20,000 bases of DNA from an uncultured virus (IMG/VR IMGVR_UViG_3300032309_003726). Taxonomy: Duplodnaviria > Heunggongvirae > Uroviricota > Caudoviricetes. The notes beneath the pieces were generated by a model that did not search any database, had not been told where the DNA came from, and was given only the letters and a program-made list of their open reading frames with translations. The position numbers and the translations under genes were made by a program. Positions 2,918 through 19,412 of this stretch are shown here, piece after piece. The stretch lies in the IMG/VR virus record IMGVR_UViG_3300032309_003726, one strand, 5' to 3'. The first letter of the stretch is position 1, and the number at the start of each line of letters is the position of its first letter.

Positions 2918-3151
2918 TTATTTTGGATTTTTAACTCCATCCCAATTTTGAGAATTTTTAACTCCATCCCAATTTTGTCTGTCATTCGGTTCAAAATTTT
3001 TATTATTTATTTTTGTTTGATTAAAATTATTATCTCTAAAATAAGAAATAATTTTTGATAAAGAACCAGCTATGGCTATTAAAAAAAGTAAATTTAAAAA
3101 AGATAAAAAAAGACAAATATAGTTGATCATAATACATCCATCATTCGACAA
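2918..3151 (-). CDS. Small membrane protein with duplicated QNWDGVKN tail
   Basis: Hydrophobic N-terminal helix (YICLFLSFLNLLFLIAIAGSL); C-terminal 9-aa duplication. Confidence 0.6.
   Translation of the reverse strand: MSNDGCIMINYICLFLSFLNLLFLIAIAGSLSKIISYFRDNNFNQTKINNKNFEPNDRQNWDGVKNSQNWDGVKNPK
2927..2977. repeat. Direct repeat, 24-bp identical core, 27-bp period, 2 copies
   Basis: ATTTTTAACTCCATCCCAATTTTG at 2927-2950 and 2954-2977, in frame within the 2918..3151 ORF. Confidence 0.95.
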
Positions 3152-6100
3152 GGGTTGAAGTTGGCATCCTGACTCTTTTTCTAATGGTTTCTGCCAATGA
3201 TTGAGTGACCTTTAAAATTAAATCGGGAGATTCTACCCAGGCTCTGTTCTTAAAAATTCCAATATTATCATAGATTGTATTTTGATAAATTGTAGCGGAG
3301 GGATTTGAAACAGCGAAATCGCTTTGAGTATCATAATTTATTTCGAATTCAAGCCTGTTAGCTGATGTTAAACAATAGTTGTCTGGCAAAACAGCGATCA
3401 CAACCCTAGTTTCATAGCTGTCGCCCGTAAGTAAGTTGTTTCTAGAAAATTGAAGAGCAACTTTCCAGAGTCTGGATCCCAATATGGTTCCTCCGATATT
3501 ATTAGAGCAAGAAATTTCGGAGACTACATTCCAGGATTCGGGGTAATTGCCTAGACCCGATATTCCTTTATAGTGTAAATTATTTTGCCAAGAATCATTG
3601 GTTTTATTGTACCTTAATTCTAAATTTTTAGAAATAGTAAAATTATTTCTCGTTAAAAATTTGGCAAAAACATTATCGATTGCAAAATTATGAGTCAAAG
3701 TCATTGTGGAAGAAAGATCAAAACAACCACATTTGTTGAAAAAATCAACGTCACCCTCAGCGTCTTGTTTATCTATACCGGCAAAATACACATCCATCTT
3801 TAATAAATTCATTGAGAAATCAAAAATCTGGTCTGGTACGCTAATGTTTCCTGATTTATTTGTGGCCTGTCCTATAACAAACACAGCATTCCCGTCTGAT
3901 ATCCATTTCCAATTTTGCTTTTTTGATCTCGCTGATCCCAAAAGATTTATTCCGCCAGCAGCAAAATATTTAGAAATTTTTCTGGGTACGAACGACTCTC
4001 CCGCAATATTTATACCGCCAACAACTTGATATCTAAATCTCTCAAACCTGGATGCCGATCCTCGTGTTTTCAATCCGCCACTCATCGAATGCCACCAAGG
4101 TAAAACAAAAGCCTCTCCACCAAACTTCAAATTTATAATTGAATTTTCTAAATAAGGAGTTATTTTAGAAGAAGAAGACAACAAACAGCCTCCACTGGTG
4201 TTTGCAACAATGGTTTTGAGTGAGTCGCCACCTATTTTTGCACCAAAAGAAGAAACTTTAAAAACAGTTCGTTTTGTGTATCGAGCATTAGCAGAGCCGT
4301 AAGAGTAAATTTTTCCTAAGGACTTAGATGTATAAGCTGGGGACTTAGCCAAAGCCCCGCTATCTGAAGAAACTCTTATGGTAGAACCATTTGGATCTTC
4401 GTATTCAACTTCAACGTTTATTGAATTAATTCTAGCAATAGTTTGATTTATATTCAAAACAGATTGAACTCTAATAGCCACCCCAAAAGAAGAATTTTTT
4501 ATTTCTTCGAGAGAAGGAACTGCTGGAATCTCTCCTGGTTGGTTATTAATATTCAAATTAATCAAAGAAGATTCGTCCACATACCTATCAAAATCTTCTC
4601 TTCTCCAAGCATCTAATCCATAAGATTTTGTAGTTTGCAAGAGAGGCCAATCTATATTTGTCACTGCCAGATTGCTTGTTATTACTTTGTTGTTTATAAC
4701 CAAAAACAAATCTTTGTCCCTAATGCCACTTTTTGTTGCAACTCTGTCAACGTTGACAATTAATTTTAAAACTTTGCTATTTTCTGGTATGTTAAAAGAA
4801 AAATTTGTCAAAACTAAAAGTTCGGATGTCTTTTTAAAACTAATGTCGGAAGATGAGAAGAGGTTGTCTTCCGAGATTGCTCTTTCCGGCAAAAGCCAAG
4901 GAGACTGCGTTGGAGTATGTTTGAGGCTAGTTGATTTTTTTGCATAACTTTTTGGAGTTTTGTTTGGCCAAACGCCCCCATTATAAGACCAACGATTGTG
5001 TCTAAGCCTAGACTTGCCGCCAACCACACAACCACCAAGACCTCTAAAGAAATTTGTTCCAATTATAAAATTGCCATCAAAAAACAACTCCCCCTCAGAC
5101 TTGAATTTAATATTAGGTAATTTTTTAACAAAAACATAACTAGATTCGCCTGATGTTTGCAAACTTCCTGATGCCGTGGATTGAAAAACTACCCAAGCTT
5201 TAAAATAAAAGCCAGTTTTTAAATTAATGTCCTGATCGACGCAAAAATCTGCACACTCGGGAATCGAACATAACTCAACATCAACAAGATTATTGCAATC
5301 TAAATTGACGCCATTTGATTCTTGTTCTTCAACAACAACAGTTTCCGCAGGTCTGTTGAATCTTTCAACCGTCTCTATTGGAAATTTATATTTTCTTTTA
5401 CTTAATTTTTGACACAACTCGGATAATGACCTTGCGTGCAAATTAACTATAATTTTGCCACAACAAACATCTTGTGGGATACAAGGATCTACAATTCCCT
5501 TGCCAACAACACGATACCAATACATTATTTGTTGACCTAAATTCCAATAAAAATCAACTTTTTTCTCTAATTTAAGATCTGTGTTCCATTTAAATTCTAT
5601 ATCTTTATTAAATTTAAAATTTATTAAAGTACCGTCTGATTTAAGAGATAAACCACCGTCTGAAACGAACAGCGTGTCATTTATAAAATAGAAACCTGAC
5701 CCCTCAACAGATAATGATCCGGATGGTGTGACAAAAAAATTATTGTTTACATTTAGTAAATTTTTACCCGATGGTTTCAATCCGCCGACAACGGAACCTC
5801 TGGCCTCCTTCATTACTAAATTAAAATTAGAAGATGAAGAACAAACGGCACCCCCAAGAGAAACAAAACCTTCGGAAACAAAAAAATCACCCGAGATGAG
5901 ACACAATCCTTCGAAATTATTACGGTAACGAGCCCTAATCAAAGCCGTGCCTTGAAATAGTAAGCCACTACTTTCTACAAAGAATTCTGTGGACTGCGTG
6001 TTGTTGAAATTAACATATAATTTAACTCCACCAAGTGAAACACAATTATAAACAAAGAATGATGAAGAGAAAGGCGAAATTGTAATTCCACCAGTGGCGA

Positions 6101-6440
6101 CAATGGCTTCAGTAGCGATTGCATCCCCTGATAATTTTATTTCAACAACGGTGATGATCACATTAATCAATGATACTGATCCGGAGCCACCAATCCGTGT
6201 TGTGCCTTGCGAACCAATACTATAAATCAAAGACTCTGATCCGGAGCCGCCAATACGTGTTGTGCCTTGCGAACCAATACTATAAATCAAAGACTCTGAT
6301 CCAGAGCCGCTATTATTCACGCCGCCATATGCGGTGATAGAGTAAATAGTGTTGCCCTCATAGGCGCTTTCAATAAGAACAACGTCCGCTTGACCACCTA
6401 AATTTATACCACCAAAAAATATTTCGTCGTAAGTGTTCAT
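3141..6440 (-). CDS. Large putative virion structural/fibre-like protein with ~20-aa GG-periodic repeats and Cys-rich segments
   Basis: 1099-aa ORF. Recurrent GG-x(4)-[GS]-x-[AS] units, a Cys-rich central block (DPCIPQDVCC, ELCSIPECADFC) and a beta-sandwich-like block (SPWLLPE...LVLTNFSFNIPENSKVLKLIVNVDR). Confidence 0.6.
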   Translation of the reverse strand: MNTYDEIFFGGINLGGQADVVLIESAYEGNTIYSITAYGGVNNSGSGSESLIYSIGSQGTTRIGGSGSESLIYSIGSQGTTRIGGSGSVSLINVIITVVEIKLSGDAIATEAIVATGGITISPFSSSFFVYNCVSLGGVKLYVNFNNTQSTEFFVESSGLLFQGTALIRARYRNNFEGLCLISGDFFVSEGFVSLGGAVCSSSSNFNLVMKEARGSVVGGLKPSGKNLLNVNNNFFVTPSGSLSVEGSGFYFINDTLFVSDGGLSLKSDGTLINFKFNKDIEFKWNTDLKLEKKVDFYWNLGQQIMYWYRVVGKGIVDPCIPQDVCCGKIIVNLHARSLSELCQKLSKRKYKFPIETVERFNRPAETVVVEEQESNGVNLDCNNLVDVELCSIPECADFCVDQDINLKTGFYFKAWVVFQSTASGSLQTSGESSYVFVKKLPNIKFKSEGELFFDGNFIIGTNFFRGLGGCVVGGKSRLRHNRWSYNGGVWPNKTPKSYAKKSTSLKHTPTQSPWLLPERAISEDNLFSSSDISFKKTSELLVLTNFSFNIPENSKVLKLIVNVDRVATKSGIRDKDLFLVINNKVITSNLAVTNIDWPLLQTTKSYGLDAWRREDFDRYVDESSLINLNINNQPGEIPAVPSLEEIKNSSFGVAIRVQSVLNINQTIARINSINVEVEYEDPNGSTIRVSSDSGALAKSPAYTSKSLGKIYSYGSANARYTKRTVFKVSSFGAKIGGDSLKTIVANTSGGCLLSSSSKITPYLENSIINLKFGGEAFVLPWWHSMSGGLKTRGSASRFERFRYQVVGGINIAGESFVPRKISKYFAAGGINLLGSARSKKQNWKWISDGNAVFVIGQATNKSGNISVPDQIFDFSMNLLKMDVYFAGIDKQDAEGDVDFFNKCGCFDLSSTMTLTHNFAIDNVFAKFLTRNNFTISKNLELRYNKTNDSWQNNLHYKGISGLGNYPESWNVVSEISCSNNIGGTILGSRLWKVALQFSRNNLLTGDSYETRVVIAVLPDNYCLTSANRLEFEINYDTQSDFAVSNPSATIYQNTIYDNIGIFKNRAWVESPDLILKVTQSLAETIRKRVRMPTSTLVE
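6177..6310. repeat. Tandem repeat, 60-bp unit, ~2.2 copies (coding GSGSESLIYSIGSQGTTRIG)
   Basis: Units at 6177-6236 and 6237-6296 differ at only 2 positions; partial third copy at 6297-6310. Confidence 0.95.
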
Positions 6441-7687: not shown

Positions 7688-8170
7688 ATGTTAAACTTTA
7701 AAAAATTTCTTCAAGATAACATGGAAGAAGAAAAAGAAGATATTCAGAAAACTCTTTCCAAGTTGCCAAAAGCACACGCAGATCTTGTTAAAGGGTACAA
7801 GTGGAAGTTTCATGCCGGAAACACACTAAATGGAGATGATAAACACGTTGGCTATATGGACAAATACTCGAAGGAAATAGCCATAGCGGCACCTTGGAAT
7901 TTTTCAAGAGAGTTTACAATTCTTCACGAAATAGCTCATCTTGTATATGAAAGATTATCAAAAGAAATAAAAAGTCAATGGTCGCAAGTTGTCAAAAAAA
8001 ACTTTGAAAAACAAACACAAGAAAATCCTGGGGCAAAAGATTCTTTAAAACAAATACCCGAAGAAATTTTTTGTCATTGCTATGCCAATTTTTATTCCAA
8101 GCACAAAAATGCAACCTACAACAACCCTGAGTGGATGGGATTTATAAAGATTTTACACAATGCGATTTAA
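7688..8170 (+). CDS. Zincin-type (HExxH) metallopeptidase-like protein with N-terminal FKKFL..E motif
   Basis: TILHEIAHLVY zinc motif with a downstream EEIFCHCYANFY helix carrying a likely third Glu ligand. Confidence 0.75.
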   Translation: MLNFKKFLQDNMEEEKEDIQKTLSKLPKAHADLVKGYKWKFHAGNTLNGDDKHVGYMDKYSKEIAIAAPWNFSREFTILHEIAHLVYERLSKEIKSQWSQVVKKNFEKQTQENPGAKDSLKQIPEEIFCHCYANFYSKHKNATYNNPEWMGFIKILHNAI

Positions 8171-9296
8171 ACTTTGGTTAGAAAACATGGAAAGCGCCGA
8201 GGACATCTTTAAAAGATTATCCTCATTGATTTTATCCGCATCCACATATCAAGGTGCAATAAAAAGTTTGTCCAGTGCGGGGGTGATTCCTGATTTTGGC
8301 ACAGATCAATATACTCAACTAGGACACAAATGGAAAGATGCTTTTTATGGTTTAATATCTGGTGATACGGGGGGCGGAATGTTCATGCCCGAAACCAATC
8401 CAGATTTGGCATCTAAGTTATACACAATTGCTAATAGAATTAAATCTGTGGGTTTTGATGTCATAGATGACCCTCAAGGATCTTGGTACTTTTTTCAAAT
8501 CGAGGGATATAAGCCCGATGGTGCGAAAAAAAAGATACATGTAAAAATACCAGCAGACAACCTAGAATATGCTGTAAAGCTTGCTGAACTAATAAAACAA
8601 AACCTTGTTAATGTTCGTCAATTTAAGTTTGCTGCAAAAGGCAACAGCTTTGAGTCTAGACGGGATAATTTTGTTATTTATTTATCAAAACAGGGCGAAA
8701 GTAATAGTGAAGATTTTATAAAAGCAATTAAATCTTTAGGCTTAAGTACCGATGTAGGGGAAGACTTTAAAGGCAGCACTGGTAATTCACTTAGTCAGAC
8801 CGAGCTTGTAAGTCTAAGATTATCTGCAATATTATTAAGTAAACCGGGTATTCCCAGACCTAACTTTGCAGGTCAAAAGTTATGGAAAGATACAGAACAA
8901 GAGTTTTTAATGTCTGACCCTGTCGCTTCTCCTTATTTAAAAGGAACAGGACAGCCTCCGGCAACTCAAGCCAGCGGTGGTGTTCAAGACTATCAACCAA
9001 AAACACTAACTCTGTACGGTGGCAATCGGCCCTTATCAATTAATATTGACACACAAATCGGCAAACCTGTGCTGCAATCTTTAGGTGATGTTGCACAATA
9101 CTTTTCAGATGTCCAGTTCAGAATTCAAAAAGCAAGCAACGGCTGGTATTTGATACCAAACAACACAGCAGTCAACCAAACCATAATTAACGGATCAGTG
9201 GTTCGTGGAGCCACAAGAATTAACATTAACGATCAAATTGGAATTATAGGAAAGTCTGGTCGGCAAATAATGCCCTTAAAAGCAACAAGCGTATAA
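8160..9296 (+). CDS. Phosphothreonine-lyase/HopA1-like domain fused to a C-terminal FHA-like domain; N-terminal FKLWLE motif
   Basis: K125-I-H127-V, F-K156-F and R167/168-D-N-F-V-I-Y174 motifs. P/A/Q/G-rich linker. C-terminal IGK...YFSDVQFRI...GWYL...NQTIING...NDQIGI matches FHA strand topology. Confidence 0.6.
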   Translation: MRFKLWLENMESAEDIFKRLSSLILSASTYQGAIKSLSSAGVIPDFGTDQYTQLGHKWKDAFYGLISGDTGGGMFMPETNPDLASKLYTIANRIKSVGFDVIDDPQGSWYFFQIEGYKPDGAKKKIHVKIPADNLEYAVKLAELIKQNLVNVRQFKFAAKGNSFESRRDNFVIYLSKQGESNSEDFIKAIKSLGLSTDVGEDFKGSTGNSLSQTELVSLRLSAILLSKPGIPRPNFAGQKLWKDTEQEFLMSDPVASPYLKGTGQPPATQASGGVQDYQPKTLTLYGGNRPLSINIDTQIGKPVLQSLGDVAQYFSDVQFRIQKASNGWYLIPNNTAVNQTIINGSVVRGATRININDQIGIIGKSGRQIMPLKATSV

Positions 9297-12755: not shown

Positions 12756-13068
12756 AGCCACGATCTTGCTCCCAATCTTTTTGCCAAGATTCAAATCCAT
12801 TGTAAGATCCATGAGTAAGATCATTTTTAAAAGAAATTTTTGAGTATAATTCATCGCCCTGAGTATCAACCTGCAAACTCTCAGGATTTACTTTATCTGG
12901 ATCGAAACCTGGACCATACGGAGATGGAGAATAATTTTGTTTTAATTTTTCAATAACGCAACCTGTTGTGGCGTTAATTATGAATTTACTAAAAGCAAAC
13001 CCTAGCAAGTTGATTGTAATTAAAGAAATAACTATTAGAAATATTTTATTATTTTTTAAATCATCCAT
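12739..13068 (-). CDS. Membrane-anchored hypothetical protein
   Basis: N-terminal hydrophobic helix ([18 protein letters not shown]); SD AGGAGA; overlaps the dnaJ stop. Confidence 0.7.
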
Positions 13069-14143
13069 TTTTTTCTCCTATTTTTTTAAAAATTTCTTGT
13101 CTATTTGTGTTCAAACAAGAGTTTTCTAACTCCATTAGTTTAGTAAAAATTTCTTTTTCTTTATCACCCAAATCATTTGGTGTGTGGAGCGTAAGATTAA
13201 CGTATTGATCACCACGTTGGTATATAGTATCACTGGTATTAAATATAGGTAATCCTAAGTTCTTCAGTCTTAGCTTTTGATTCGGCTTTGATTTTGGGGG
13301 AATAACAATGGCGGCTCGCCCTTCCAAGGTAGGAACCTCTATTTGAGTTCCCAAAACAAGTTCAGAATATCCAACAGGCCAATTTATTAAAATGTCTCCC
13401 TTTGGTAATCTTTCAAAATATTCATGCTTCTGTACATTTATTGATATAAACAAATCGCCAAAAACACCATCAGAATCAACTGGGGGATTTCCCAGACCTT
13501 TTTGAACAAATCTCATTCGATTATCTACTCCGGGGAAGATTTTGAATTTTATTTTTTGTTCCTCCGAGTTGATGTATCCCCCTTCGCAATTTGAACAAGA
13601 TTCACCTATAACGCTTCCGGTGCCACCGCACGCCTGACAGCCAGCCCTCACGGTCATGGCCCTCCCTTGAATTACCCTTGAACCAGTGCCATCGCAATGT
13701 TTGCACTTTATTCTATCGCCACCAAAACCATTGCACTTATCACAAATATTTTTTTTCTGGTAGAGAAGATCTATTTCGCCACCACTTAAAACTTGATTTA
13801 ATGTTATGTTTGCTTCCAAAAATATGTCCTCGCCTTTGGAAACTTGCTGAGGTCTATTATTGAAAAATTGAGCAAACATATCTTCAAAAGCCGAGGAGAA
13901 GGGTTTGCCTCTTTCAAAAAAATCATTTCCTTGAATTGATCCATGGCTGTCATAATTAAATCTTGAATTTTTATTGCTTAAAATTTCAAAAGCACGAGAA
14001 ACTTGTTTGAAATTTTCCGCTGACTCTGGGTCGTTTGGGTTTAAATCGGGGTGATATTTTTTTGCCAAATCACGATAAGCCTTACGAATATCCTCCTCTG
14101 AGGCACCTTTTTCAAGACCTAAGATTTCATATAAATTTTTCAA
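13061..14143 (-). CDS. dnaJ: Chaperone DnaJ (class A: J domain, four Cys zinc-finger repeats, C-terminal domain)
   Basis: YEILG...KYHPD J-domain; [24 protein letters not shown] and CSNCEGG repeats; GDLFI and LG-x(4)-VPTLEG motifs. Likely TTG start at 14143 overlapping the upstream TGA. Confidence 0.95.
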
Positions 14144-14922
14144 AATATTTCTCCAGCCAGTCTTTGGCAATTATTGTAATAAGATAAAAGAGATTCTTTG
14201 TGTGCATTCTTATGCCACAACAATTGATAATCGTGAATTCCTTTATATTGAGAAATAAAATTGGTTGGGTGACACAAACCACATTTATTATATAAATTTT
14301 CAAAAAAAGAGCGGTCAGTGTCTTTAATTAGTGGTTTTCCTTGTATAAATTTTGTAGTTTCTGCGAACCAAGCATCAAATTTTTTACAACAATCAGATCT
14401 CCAAGCAACTTGAGTTGCATCCAATTTTCCAACTGGGTTTATAGGATTTTTATATTGATTATATTTGTGCGACAAAGAATCAGCTTCTTCGCTTTTCTGG
14501 AACAAAGGATTATATGTTATAATATTTGAATAACAATAAAGAACTTCTTGATTTTTTAAAAAAAAATTATTTAAATTATAAAAATAATTAGGATAAAATT
14601 CATCGTCATCACAAAGAGTCACAACCAAATCGGCATCAGAGTTCTTTATGGCTTGATTTGCGTACTTGCCTATCGACAAACCTTCTTGTATTTTTTGTTC
14701 CGGGGAAGCATTTGAATTTGCAAAAATAATTTGATTTTTAAAATCTGCCAGAATATCCTCTACAATTGGCTTTCCTGGATTTGGACTACCGTCATCGCCA
14801 AAGAAAAGAACCCAATTCTGGTGGAGATTATTACACTTTGCAATACTTCTTAAAGCATTTTTTACCAAAATAGGTCTATTATAATAAACCATCAATATTA
14901 AAATTTTTAACTTATTTTTCAT
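14140..14922 (-). CDS. Glycosyltransferase family 2
   Basis: [22 protein letters not shown] and LCDDD motifs. Confidence 0.88.
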
Positions 14923-16396: not shown

Positions 16397-17226
16397 ATAA
16401 TTTGTTTTTTAATATATTCTTTTATATCAACAACAGGACTCCATTGAGTTTTGATACAAGTATGCTCAATATCGGCAAGTGTTGTTTTTGCTTCGCCTTT
16501 TCTAGGTTCGATATACTCAACGGGCGAATTAAAAAAAGAAGCTATTTCATTAATAGAATAATTTTTACCCGATCCTAAATTAAAGATTTCAAAATCCCAG
16601 TCTGTTTTCATTATGCAAACAAGACCTGACACTATATCGTCTACATGTGTAAAATCACGCCTTTGTTCGCCATCCCCGGTTATGGTAAGGTTTTTATTTT
16701 GCTTTTTTTGTTTTTCAAAAATCCCAACAACGGTGGCGTACTCTCCTTCTTCAATTTGTCTAGGTCCATAAACATTAAAAAATCTAGCAATTGCCACAGG
16801 AACTTGAAAAATTTTATTGTAAAGAACGCAATATTGTTCTCCTATGCTTTTGCTAAAAGCGTAGGGATTAGCATAAATGTCATGCAAAACAGAGCTAGAT
16901 CCAGCAAAGATTACTCTAGACTTTGATTTTTTTGCAAAATCTAAAATCTTAAAAGTACCTGTGGTGTTTGAGTCGTGAACATTTGTTGTATCTTTAAAAC
17001 TAGGTTGAATTCTTGGCAAAGCCGCCAAATGAAAAATAAAATCAAAATCATATGAAAAACGACAAGATTCTATATTTTGAACGAAACCATACCTATATGT
17101 TGCTTTTGGATTTTCATGCTTGCAAAAAGCACAATCTAAAGAAACAACTTCATAATTCAAAGAAACCAACTTGTCAACAAGATGAGAGCCGATAAATCCC
17201 GACCCTCCAGTAACTAAACATCTCAT
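16393..17226 (-). CDS. NAD-dependent nucleotide-sugar epimerase/dehydratase (extended SDR)
   Basis: LVTGGSGFIGSHL, FHLAA, SSS, YAFSK (YxxxK), RFFNVYGPRQ and GDGEQRRDFTHVDD motifs. Confidence 0.95.
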   Translation of the reverse strand: MRCLVTGGSGFIGSHLVDKLVSLNYEVVSLDCAFCKHENPKATYRYGFVQNIESCRFSYDFDFIFHLAALPRIQPSFKDTTNVHDSNTTGTFKILDFAKKSKSRVIFAGSSSVLHDIYANPYAFSKSIGEQYCVLYNKIFQVPVAIARFFNVYGPRQIEEGEYATVVGIFEKQKKQNKNLTITGDGEQRRDFTHVDDIVSGLVCIMKTDWDFEIFNLGSGKNYSINEIASFFNSPVEYIEPRKGEAKTTLADIEHTCIKTQWSPVVDIKEYIKKQII

Positions 17227-17792
17227 ATTATCTTATTTTTAATTGGTTCTAGGCGGCAAACTATATTCGTTCCATCAAGTTTTGGCGGAGCCTCCACGGC
17301 TGCGACATCGGATAGAAGATTCAATAACTTTTTGAAAACCTCGAAGCCTTGATTTTTATGAGCATTTTCACGCTGCCTGAATTTACAAACACACTTTACT
17401 TTGTAGCCCTTTGTTAAAAAAACTCTTATTTGATTAGATTTTGTATTAAGATCCCCGTCAGCTATAACATACCTGAAGTCTATTTCTTTTTCTTTAACTT
17501 GGTTTTGCTTGCTATTAGATTCTTTTTGCTTCTTTTGTTTGTCATACATGTATTTTCCGTAATCTATGATATGACAAACTGGAGGTCTGGCGTTGGGGGC
17601 AACTTCAACCAAATCTAAATCAAAACTTCTAGCCAATTGTAGGGCGGATCTACTTTGCATCACCCCTAAATTTTTCCCATCATGAATCACTAAAACCTGA
17701 GGTATTCTAATTTGTTCGTTGCATCTGACTCGATCCTTTTTTGGATTATCATCAAACCTTGAATACCTTCCAAAATTACCATTTATAGCCAT
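17223..17792 (-). CDS. infC: Translation initiation factor IF-3
   Basis: NEQIR, DLDLVEVAPNARPPVCHIIDYGKYMY, KEIDFR..I...DL.TK and FL.KG.KVK motifs. Most plausible start is the ATG at 17792 (MAING...), with AAAGGA upstream. Confidence 0.95.
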   Translation of the reverse strand: MAINGNFGRYSRFDDNPKKDRVRCNEQIRIPQVLVIHDGKNLGVMQSRSALQLARSFDLDLVEVAPNARPPVCHIIDYGKYMYDKQKKQKESNSKQNQVKEKEIDFRYVIADGDLNTKSNQIRVFLTKGYKVKCVCKFRQRENAHKNQGFEVFKKLLNLLSDVAAVEAPPKLDGTNIVCRLEPIKNKII

Positions 17793-17811
17793 TAGGGCTT
17801 TATATCCTTTC

Positions 17812-18858
17812 TTAGATTTCTGTTGTGAAACTATCAACTATTTGAACAATAAATCCTTCGTTATTGGAAGGAAATCTTCTAACCCACTCAACACCCTCCC
17901 CCATAAAACAACCAAAATCCTCTGGTGTTAAACTGGGGCTTGTAAAACTTGGTATAACAGAGACGTTTTGAGAGTTTAAAATTCCATTGTTATTATAGGA
18001 ATTATTTTTATTTGAATTATCTGTTGTCAACAACACAGAGCCGTCATTGTGATTTTCTCCGGTATAGTATTGATTATCGGAGTGAAGGTGAATATCGCCA
18101 TTCCAAGGAAGTTGTTTCAAAAAATACTTATCATCTACTTGGTTGTATTCTAATCTAACGGATGAGTTGGAGTCAGCGGAACCCGTATAATAGAATCCAT
18201 CTTCATTATTTTTAAACACTTCTCCAACCCAATCACCATCAGGAATAAAATAAACAACTTCTATCATTTTTAAAACCTTGAATTCTAGGTAGTAGATTCC
18301 TGGGAGACATGTATCCTCTGGCTTCCAATCATATGTTAAAAAAGAAGATTGAATAACATCATTTTCAAGGGTTCCATCAACATTATTAATATCTTTGAAT
18401 TCCATTTCGGCTCTGGCTTGTTCATTCATTATTCTAAAAATTCTTATCTTGGTTCCTTTTTTATAAGAATTAGCATCTGTTCCATGGTAAGATCTTTGAA
18501 CTTTAATAAATTTATTTTTTTCATCAAAACCAAGAACCAACATTTTTTCTGGTGATCTAACTTGGTCTACTATGATTATATCCCCCACCATAACTTGGTT
18601 AAAACCTATGTTGTCTGCAACAGGGAAGTAATCAACGGACTCATTAAGGTCTGTCTTTAGTTTTGCCGAGGACCACATATTGATCTCTGCAATTAACCCA
18701 CGAAAATCAAAAGGTCCATCGCAATCTTCTATTGAAACACGAAAAGAGGGCCTTGTATCGTGTCTTTTTATGGAAAAATCTGGTGTTACTTGTGAATTTG
18801 CATCTTGGCAACCACATGTGTTGCAACTTCCAGTCTTCAAGTTATATCTCAGTGCCAT
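17812..18858 (-). CDS. BppU N-terminal-like (baseplate/tail adaptor) structural protein with insertions
   Basis: FSIKRHDTRPSF.V...D..G..D and YDW...DT..PG.Y..EF.V...FP pattern resembling BppU_N-type domains. Confidence 0.55.
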   Translation of the reverse strand: MALRYNLKTGSCNTCGCQDANSQVTPDFSIKRHDTRPSFRVSIEDCDGPFDFRGLIAEINMWSSAKLKTDLNESVDYFPVADNIGFNQVMVGDIIIVDQVRSPEKMLVLGFDEKNKFIKVQRSYHGTDANSYKKGTKIRIFRIMNEQARAEMEFKDINNVDGTLENDVIQSSFLTYDWKPEDTCLPGIYYLEFKVLKMIEVVYFIPDGDWVGEVFKNNEDGFYYTGSADSNSSVRLEYNQVDDKYFLKQLPWNGDIHLHSDNQYYTGENHNDGSVLLTTDNSNKNNSYNNNGILNSQNVSVIPSFTSPSLTPEDFGCFMGEGVEWVRRFPSNNEGFIVQIVDSFTTEI

Positions 18859-18869
18859 GATATTATTAT

Positions 18870-19412
18870 TTACCGCTCAGCGAGCATTTTTTGTAAATTA
18901 ACGATCCAATCGGACAGCCAATCTATGTTGCCATTAAATTTTTCAATTTTAGTGCCACCAAGTTTTGCTATTTCAAAAGTTTTTTGACGCCAATCAGAAT
19001 TTTGCAAACTCGAACTTAGGCCAGACTGAAAATCAAAATAAACGACTCTTCCTATGCCTTTGCTAACAATCTGCAACATACAAGCTGGGCAAGGCAAAGC
19101 AGTCACATAGAGGGTGGAGTCTATTAGATTAATATTTTGCAAATAAATATTATTCATCGCATTAATTTCTGCATGAATTATCAAATCATACTTGCATAAA
19201 TTATTTTCTTTGTCAGCAACTCTATCCCAAACTACGTCCAAATCTTTAATGTTTCTCGGGGGACCATTGTAACCTTCACCTAAAACATAATTATCATTAG
19301 AAACGATATAAGCACCAACTTGGGTGTTTGGATCTTTTGAACAAGAAGCTATAGTCCAAGCCAAGCCCATGTATCTAGAATCTCGATCAGGTGTGTTCCT
19401 AAATTTTTGCAT
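18870..19412 (-). CDS. dCMP deaminase family protein
   Basis: SKDPNTQVGA, GYNG, HAEINA and PCPAC zinc-deaminase motifs. Confidence 0.92.
   Translation of the reverse strand: MQKFRNTPDRDSRYMGLAWTIASCSKDPNTQVGAYIVSNDNYVLGEGYNGPPRNIKDLDVVWDRVADKENNLCKYDLIIHAEINAMNNIYLQNINLIDSTLYVTALPCPACMLQIVSKGIGRVVYFDFQSGLSSSLQNSDWRQKTFEIAKLGGTKIEKFNGNIDWLSDWIVNLQKMLAER

Follow-up and report, generated by a model that had tools for sequence, protein, structure and literature searches.

Locus and layout of the lyase-FHA gene

The window analysed here, a stretch of 20,000 nucleotides from an uncultured virus of the Caudoviricetes (IMG/VR record IMGVR_UViG_3300032309_003726), is phage DNA, with a tail-fibre PHROG, PhoH, DnaJ, IF-3, dCMP deaminase and glycosyltransferases among its gene products, and two IMG/VR contigs are fully syntenic with it (G001, 458,813 bp, estimated to be 91% complete, and G002, 177,312 bp). 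The gene considered in this study encodes a protein of 378 amino acids (aa) in which a predicted phospho-Ser/Thr lyase domain is followed by an FHA-like domain. Its parts are listed below (CTS, capsid-targeting sequence; ORF, open reading frame; pLDDT, predicted local distance difference test).

8160..9296, + strand: whole gene, with leader, lyase domain, linker and FHA-like domain, 378 aa (ORF translation; homologues)
8160..8186, + strand: leader MRFKLWLEN, aa 1-9, resembling the T4 CTS (pLDDT <50 at residues 1-8; leader regular expression)
8193..8450, + strand: helical subdomain at the N-terminus, aa 12-97, with counterparts in HopA1 and LxmY (helices of the model; structural alignments)
8451..8924, + strand: predicted phospho-Ser/Thr lyase core, aa 98-255
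8532..8540, + strand: K125-I-H127, putative enolate/phosphate-stabilising Lys and general-acid His (aligned with SpvC K104-F-H106)
8625..8627, + strand: K156, putative catalytic base (aligned with SpvC K136 and the conserved Lys of the HopA1 family)
8658..8681, + strand: motif R167-R168-D169-N170-F-V-I-Y174 (aligned with R-x-D-x-x-V-x-Y of the HopA1 family; Y174 with SpvC Y158)
8943..8993, + strand: flexible Pro/Ala/Gln/Gly linker, aa 262-278 (pLDDT <50)
8994..9293, + strand: FHA-like beta-sandwich domain, aa 279-378

Met1 at 8160 is the likely start because the first nine residues (MRFKxWLEN) are conserved in homologues; P0002, the 369-aa representative of the cluster to which the window protein belongs, covers 98% of the query and so presumably starts at Met10. 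The start of the gene and the end of the upstream ORF share 11 nt. The residues that an earlier note on this DNA had named as lyase motifs (K125, H127, K129, R153, K156, R167, R168, D169, N170 and Y174) were all found by a script check at the positions given there, as was the 29-residue distance from His to Lys in the 378-aa ORF. The linker described in the same note is the sole internal low-confidence stretch of the structural model, and its sequence and length differ among homologues.

Fold of the N-terminal domain

The AlphaFold2 model, built from a 23-sequence alignment, has a mean pLDDT of 86, with values below 50 only at residues 1-8 and 262-278. Phospho-lyases were among the top Foldseek matches in the PDB (VirA/SpvC 3bo6 with E 1.3e-4; furthermore SpvC 2q8y and 2z8p, CuvL 8cav, HopA1 4rsw/4rsx, ThurKC 8sap, LxmY 9dk3 and OspF 3i0u), together with FHA-containing entries, and a VIA-align search over all 48,161 chains, independent of Foldseek, recovered the same families. 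The phosphothreonine (pThr)-lyase-type fold predicted by the earlier note is thus borne out by the model, for which matches of the SpvC/OspF/HopA1 type were obtained with both programs. Structural alignments with LxmY (score 11.5, 195 aa, model residues 14-255) and HopA1 (11.1, 188 aa, model residues 12-255) ran through the whole domain, and those with the ThurKC lyase (10.8, root-mean-square deviation (rmsd) 2.4 A) and CuvL (10.5, rmsd 2.5 A) each covered 117 aa. The arrangement of HopA1 and LanY, in which a helical N-subdomain precedes an alpha/beta lyase core, is present in the model, where the subdomain has helices at residues 13-26, 30-39, 54-67 and 81-97.

Homologues and conserved residues

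A word-indexed search yielded 23 proteins at E <=0.001 among 2753 candidates, all of them unnamed or “hypothetical” and some located on contigs of up to 501 kb. An exhaustive search of representatives yielded 158 proteins at E <=0.001, about 20 of which cover the N-terminal domain, the remainder matching the C-terminal domain only. Twelve residues of the lyase core (K125, H127, K129, R153, F155, K156, F157, R167, R168, D169, N170 and Y174) are invariant in 23/23 sequences of the close set. In a wider set of 24 sequences, reaching down to about 19-25% identity, K156 and R167 are found in every sequence, K125 in 23 (Arg in one), D169 in 21 (Glu in three), Y174 in 21 (Phe in two, Asn in one) and D202 in 23; the invariance of D198, D202 and R220, the candidate Asp/Arg equivalents, is limited to the close clade. 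Because of this invariance in the close homologues, and that of K156 and R167 in the wider set, the motif set is, as judged from sequence, beyond chance. The counterparts of CaoY K219, R229 and Y236 (K156, R167 and Y174) are thus present in 24, 24 and 21 of the 24 sequences.

Further searches added little: a natural alignment of the N-domain only (A3), used as a profile query, gave no new family members, no related loci were found in IMG/VR with the distant members P0033 and P0029 as queries, a metagenome scan for related loci added only one short contig (L033), and there were no relatives among 50,697 deposited phage records. On contig L033 (827-1957) a gene similar to family member P0025 is split into two ORFs, possibly by a frameshift or a sequencing error; its neighbourhood is different, and it adjoins an ORF of 190 aa that starts with RHGxxxN and, by eye only, resembles a histidine phosphatase.

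Relation to the HopA1 and OspF/SpvC families

The HopA1 family (PF17914, with a Pfam gathering score of 22.7 bits) had no match in the window protein (P0001), nor in the relatives G001 and G002, at E <=10, and sub-threshold matches to it (13.3-17.6 bits, E 0.004-0.075) occurred in the equivalent region of 5/15 distant family members. The nearest Atlas clusters are mostly viral, and 2/3 of them carry PF17914 on 11% of members. For profile comparison, eight PF17914 proteins (E 2.4e-10 to 1.3e-42) were taken from 3/5 and 5/401 genomes searched. With this set, a 24-sequence profile of the N-domain aligned in hhalign over 83 columns at a probability of 94.1% (E 1.3e-7), pairing K156 with the conserved Lys of the family, and R167, D169 and Y174 with the identical residues of its motif R-x-D-x-x-V-x-Y.

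The SpvC family was represented by 17 sequences (P0173 and 16/19 loci; L005, L008 and L020 were omitted as near-duplicates or contig-end pieces), in which K104, H106, K136, R148, Y158, D201, R213 and R220 are invariant. A single SpvC sequence compared with the family profile gave a probability of 1.3%; with the 17-sequence alignment, the columns of K125, H127, K156 and Y174 coincided exactly with SpvC K104, H106, K136 and Y158 within an alignment of 16-21% probability, and R148 lay three residues off R167 in the same low-probability alignment. There was no Pfam match that would place the protein in the OspF/SpvC sequence family (PF03536). The A2 family profile gave, among PDB sequences, weak matches to FHA domains and an unrelated weak match to YabA, with no lyase, and P0123 alone matched nothing there.

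In SpvC, as described in the available parts of PMC9486802 and PMC10604976, the pair K136/Y158 removes the proton from C-alpha, stabilisation of the enolate falls to K104, and H106 serves as general acid. The class V lyase CaoY is active without K-x-H (it has Arg187 instead) and depends on K219 and R229, according to the available text of PMC9486802, and a preprint, in the portion accessible, gives an HHpred value of 90% between PF03536 and PF17914. Taken together, sequence comparison and the predicted structure assign the protein to the HopA1/LanY branch of the phospho-lyase superfamily, and by its sequence the close clade has in addition K-x-H, a motif characteristic of the OspF/LanKC branch.

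The C-terminal FHA-like domain

Residues 279-378 form an FHA sandwich in the model, in agreement with the FHA entries among the Foldseek matches and with the C-terminal FHA-like beta domain proposed in the earlier note. The Pfam FHA model (PF00498) scored 16.7 bits (E 0.01) in P0001, below its gathering score of 20.7 bits, and was above the cut-off in 5/15 distant family members (23.6-32.8 bits). Canonical FHA domains bind pThr through Gly-Arg, Ser-x-x-His and Asn. The Gly, Ser and Asn are retained in the window protein (G301, S316 and N339), and the three motifs read G301-K302, S316-D317-V318-Q319 and N339-Q340-T341, i.e., they are degenerate in the way the earlier note had cautioned. Compared with the FHA domains of DgcB, GarA/OdhI, Rv1747, EmbR and Chk2, the phage version has Lys for Arg, Gln for His and N-x-T for NGT. 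Binding of phosphothreonine by this domain is possible, to judge from its residues.

Relatives of the FHA-like domain outside the family show the same unusual residue pattern, and 18/37 of those scanned are Hanks-type kinases of about 390-520 aa with the FHA-like domain at the C-terminus (P0039 is another). The phage domain thus belongs, by sequence, to a subtype from the C-termini of Ser/Thr kinases, and is tied to kinases through homology of this docking module. We also considered whether the kinase-FHA proteins are defence genes; their PADLOC matches (mad6, PD-T4-6, MkoA and PglW) lie over the kinase domain and involve a large number of unrelated kinase models, so that we take them for generic kinase similarity and draw no conclusion from them. 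A tblastn search of phages with P0045 gave only weak kinase-domain matches.

A leader resembling the T4 capsid-targeting sequence

According to the available parts of PMC9026906 and PMC3012670, the first 10 residues of the T4 internal protein IPIII are sufficient for targeting to the capsid, with positions 4 and 7 of the CTS being of importance for this and positions 8 and 10 for processing, and the internal proteins of T-even phages are diverse anti-defence proteins that have only the CTS in common. The N-terminus of T4 IpII and IpIII is MKTYQEFIAE and that of IpI is MKTFKEFTST. An N-terminal pattern of this kind was found at only 2/83 Met-starts in the window, i.e., in the lyase-FHA protein (MRFKLWLEN), in the model of which the leader is disordered, and in the protein encoded directly upstream:

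7688..8170, + strand: upstream 160-aa HExxH protein with leader MLNFKKFLQD (ORF; same place in L001 and L002)

In G001, a pattern derived from the T4 leaders (positions 4 and 7 aromatic, position 5 Q/K and position 8 aliphatic) occurred in the T4 register at the start of 8/881 first-ATG ORFs and at 0/1866 internal Met starts; in the frame one residue shorter the counts were 7/881 and 2/1866, and in the frame one residue longer 3/881 and 0/1866. The 18 leaders observed compare with 1.50 +/- 1.19 expected (maximum 7) when residues 2-13 were permuted within each ORF (2000 permutations). The best copies (e.g., MKTFQEWLNE) are identical to T4 IpII/III at 6/10 positions, with three conservative changes, and two of the best are at a distance of 4-5 kb from the gene for gp23; several other leader-bearing ORFs of G001, unlike the lyase-FHA gene, have the cleavage site [LI]-x-E. 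Across the homologues, the leader regular expression matched 26/38 N-termini of the lyase family and 31/82 of the HExxH family. Packaging of the lyase-FHA protein in the virion would be in keeping with this N-terminal resemblance.

The HExxH protein is possibly a co-expressed second cargo. It is 96-97% identical across the three phages, and the HExxH motif is present in 82/82 homologue clusters, whose contigs reach 693 kb; one of the clusters is named ImmA/M78 peptidase in its source; there is in addition a weak ATLF match (E 0.0063), and an AlphaFold2 model of the protein was unusable (pLDDT 43.6).

Leader-bearing ORFs of G001 (L034-L056) include those at 447547-447936, 447946-448779, 361187-361795, 366645-367157 and 71983-72633. 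A Pfam scan of six leader-bearing ORFs left five without a match; the ORF at 361187-361795 (202 aa) had a weak match to an ADP-ribosyltransferase (ART-PolyVal, E 0.016), which we take to be reminiscent of T4 Alt.

Genomic setting and evolution of the gene

The clade is, by sequence, T4-like, because G001 encodes a T4-type prohead protease gp21 (PF03420, E 9.1e-26) and a major capsid protein gp23 (PF07068, E 9.2e-87). Searches of G001 and G002 gave no match to Pkinase (PF00069) or APH (PF01636), no second FHA and no second HopA1 match, and a Pfam scan of the window gave no kinase. Since the two relatives are without a kinase match, any phosphate removed by the protein would have to be added by the host.

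Across the three phages the identity of the lyase-FHA gene is 56-73%, with 94-99% for its neighbours (PhoH, the HExxH protein, GT2 and DnaJ), a divergence comparable to that of the tail-fibre and lectin genes. The gene is also a mosaic, its lyase part in the window being nearest to L001 (80-88%) and its FHA part nearest to L002 (88%). P0022-P0024 have another C-terminal tail in place of the FHA-like domain, and P0025 has yet another; conversely, the metagenomic protein P0032 (338 aa) combines this FHA module (54-56% identity) with an unrelated preceding N-domain, about 220 aa long, that belongs to no family and is absent from G001 and the window. Such fast evolution with swapping of modules is the pattern we would expect of a host-facing gene. 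In P0032, a CTS-like sequence (MRFKDYFISEA) is found at an internal Met, which is probably the true start. A scan for promoters and terminators gave results at chance level.

Proposed function and alternative explanations

We propose the gene product to be a modular effector made by a giant T4-like phage that is uncultivated. With SpvC and CaoY taken as models, K156 of the lyase domain (aa 12-255), helped by Y174, would abstract the alpha-proton of a phosphorylated residue, K125 and R167 would hold the enolate and the phosphate, and H127 would protonate the leaving phosphate, so that the product would be dehydrobutyrine or dehydroalanine, which could not be phosphorylated again. The FHA-like domain (aa 279-378), on its flexible linker, might steer the lyase to partners or substrates of Hanks-type Ser/Thr kinases, because the C-termini of such kinases are its closest relatives; the phosphate would come from the host. 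As the disordered leader resembles the T4 CTS, the protein probably becomes part of the prohead contents and is injected together with the DNA, and would then be active before any phage gene is expressed. We give a probability of roughly 0.55 to this reading as a whole, i.e., an irreversible eraser of phospho-Ser/Thr that is aimed by its FHA-like module at host kinase pathways and probably delivered with the DNA. The suggestion of the earlier note that host Thr phosphorylation is erased gains strength from three observations: the 91%-complete relative has no kinase, the gene evolves fast and as a mosaic, and its leader is similar to the T4 CTS.

Several observations weigh against this reading. 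The N-domain of the window protein has no match in Pfam, PHROGs, PADLOC or PDB sequences; its K125-x-H127 columns correspond to R-x-T in the HopA1 family; the hhalign probability of 16-21% with the SpvC family is not significant alone; and an extended alignment (-mact 0.01) gave no reliable equivalents for SpvC R148, D201, R213 and R220, its C-terminal part being without confidence. The conservation anticipated by the earlier note held for K156 and R167 (24/24) and failed for His127, which is kept in 15 and replaced in 9/24 sequences (by Tyr in eight and Gln in one), all the changes being in distant homologues. That the catalytic residues would meet in one pocket is read from the superposition of the folds only (2.4 A over 117 aa, ThurKC). 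To our knowledge, lyase activity has never been demonstrated for HopA1 itself, and the fold alone is therefore no proof of catalysis. In the FHA-like domain, 16 of 20 close members have Lys at the Arg position, two have Arg and two another residue, and among distant members just about 5/12 have a basic residue there; the canonical His is always Gln, and the Ser is Gly or Ala in 7/21. MRFKLWLEN fits the T4-derived pattern only in the frame one residue shorter than the T4 CTS, and has L-E-N where T4 has I-A-E, so that the gp21-type [LI]-x-E cleavage site is absent. Finally, the T4-type gp21 and gp23 are those of the relative G001.

Alternatively, the HopA1-like fold might only bind (phospho)proteins, and the protein would then sequester or scaffold a host factor with no beta-elimination. 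We consider such a pseudo-enzyme unlikely, since K156 and R167 are invariant in 24/24 sequences, the most distant of which have about 20% identity, with D169 and Y174 nearly so, and since these are the same residues whose mutation cripples CaoY (K219, R229) and SpvC (K136, Y158) in the available text of PMC9486802; an invariant pattern of polar residues would be unusual in a pure binding surface, and LanY enzymes, as far as the same text describes them, are active without the K-x-H motif. Catalysis might also serve another end: as a LanY-type dehydratase subunit working with a kinase, the protein could introduce dehydro-amino acids into a ribosomal peptide or into some protein of the phage or the host (for a pathway resembling those of ribosomally synthesised, post-translationally modified peptides, or for cross-linking) and have nothing to do with the shutdown of signalling. 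This is quite improbable, as neither G001, G002 nor the window has a Pkinase (PF00069) or APH (PF01636) match (LanC cyclases and precursor peptides were not searched for), and the fusion partner is an FHA-like protein-docking domain rather than a leader-peptide-binding or cyclase domain.

The time and place of action are a separate matter, because the protein might be a cytoplasmic enzyme, expressed and acting late on phage or host phosphoproteins, with an N-terminal motif that is not capsid-targeting at all (e.g., a shared translation-initiation or folding element). The missing cleavage site at leader positions 8-10 and the leader's being one residue shorter than the T4 CTS speak for this view, as do the promoter scan at chance level and the fact that packaging is deduced from the sequence only. 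It is nevertheless rather unlikely, for the ordered motif is enriched about 12-fold at ORF starts over permuted N-termini (18 vs 1.5) and is found at just 0-2 of 1866 internal Met positions, its best copies are close to T4 IpII/III (6/10 identical, three conservative changes), G001 has T4-type gp21 and gp23, and Asp at CTS position 10 stops processing in T4 and does not stop targeting, according to the available part of PMC9026906. Delivery of a phospho-Ser/Thr eraser with the phage DNA is thus the reading that we prefer. A broader proposal, that giant T4-like phages carry a capsid-loaded repertoire of injected effectors marked by the CTS-like leader (at least 18 in one genome of 459 kb) and including an FHA-guided phospho-Ser/Thr lyase directed against host kinase pathways, is put forward tentatively, and we regard it as doubtful at present.

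Comparison with known systems

The type III secreted effectors OspF, SpvC, VirA and HopAI1 (PF03536) have their fold in common with the phage protein, and the distance from His to Lys is almost the same (29 residues in the phage protein and 30 in SpvC). They are also alike in concept, as in both cases an effector would irreversibly erase phosphate in a target cell. In place of the N-terminus of OspF/SpvC that docks to mitogen-activated protein kinases, the phage protein has a helical subdomain; the FHA-like domain is extra; and delivery, which relies on type III secretion in OspF/SpvC, would be by capsid and tail.

The LanY lyases (LxmY and CaoY, of class V lanthipeptide and thioamitide pathways) lack K-x-H and have Arg instead, as described in the available text of PMC9486802, whereas K125-x-H127 is present in the close clade of the phage protein. 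LanY forms a working complex with a kinase of the APH-like type, for which the phage relatives gave no match; unlike LanY, the phage lyase is fused to an FHA-like domain and is encoded by a phage. In the kinase-cyclase polyproteins the lyase is the N-terminal domain and acts on leader-bound peptides, whereas the phage protein has no kinase or cyclase domain.

With the T4 proteins IPI, IPII, IPIII and Alt the likeness consists of an N-terminal leader of about 10 aa in which positions 4 and 7 are aromatic and position 8 is aliphatic. Like the T4 internal proteins, which are a diverse, fast-evolving cargo in the available part of PMC3012670, the phage gene diverges quickly; outside the leader they have no sequence similarity to the phage lyase.

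Significance

Phospho-Ser/Thr lyases occur in two settings, as effectors injected into eukaryotic cells by pathogens and in the pathways of peptide natural products. If our reading is true, a phage lyase with an attached FHA-like docking domain would add a third setting and be the first irreversible viral “eraser” of bacterial protein phosphorylation. This would complement the finding, reported recently, that the kinase of phage T7 disarms bacterial defences through phosphorylation. Under the broader and more doubtful proposal given above, the protein would correspond, among phages, to the type III secreted effectors OspF and SpvC, irreversibly erasing host phosphorylation as the DNA enters and, e.g., disarming kinase-dependent defence. 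A full-text search of the literature found no description of a phage phospho-lyase, and BFVD contained no match to the lyase fold at E <=1e-3. The CTS-like leader offers a simple sequence handle for listing candidate injected proteins of uncultivated giant phages, and makes the question of what these phages inject directly testable.

Other genes in the window

On the minus strand at 3141-6440, an ORF of 1099 aa has N-terminal near-repeats (GSGSESLIYSIGSQGTTRIGG occurs twice) and is 77-89% identical among the three phages; it had no Pfam or PHROG match. Full-length DnaJ (13061-14170), IF-3 (17223-17837) and dCMP deaminase (18870-19412) are encoded in the window, all on the minus strand. The phage also has three GT2 glycosyltransferases, an epimerase and a GNAT protein, and a legume-lectin-like protein is encoded beside the tail-fibre gene.

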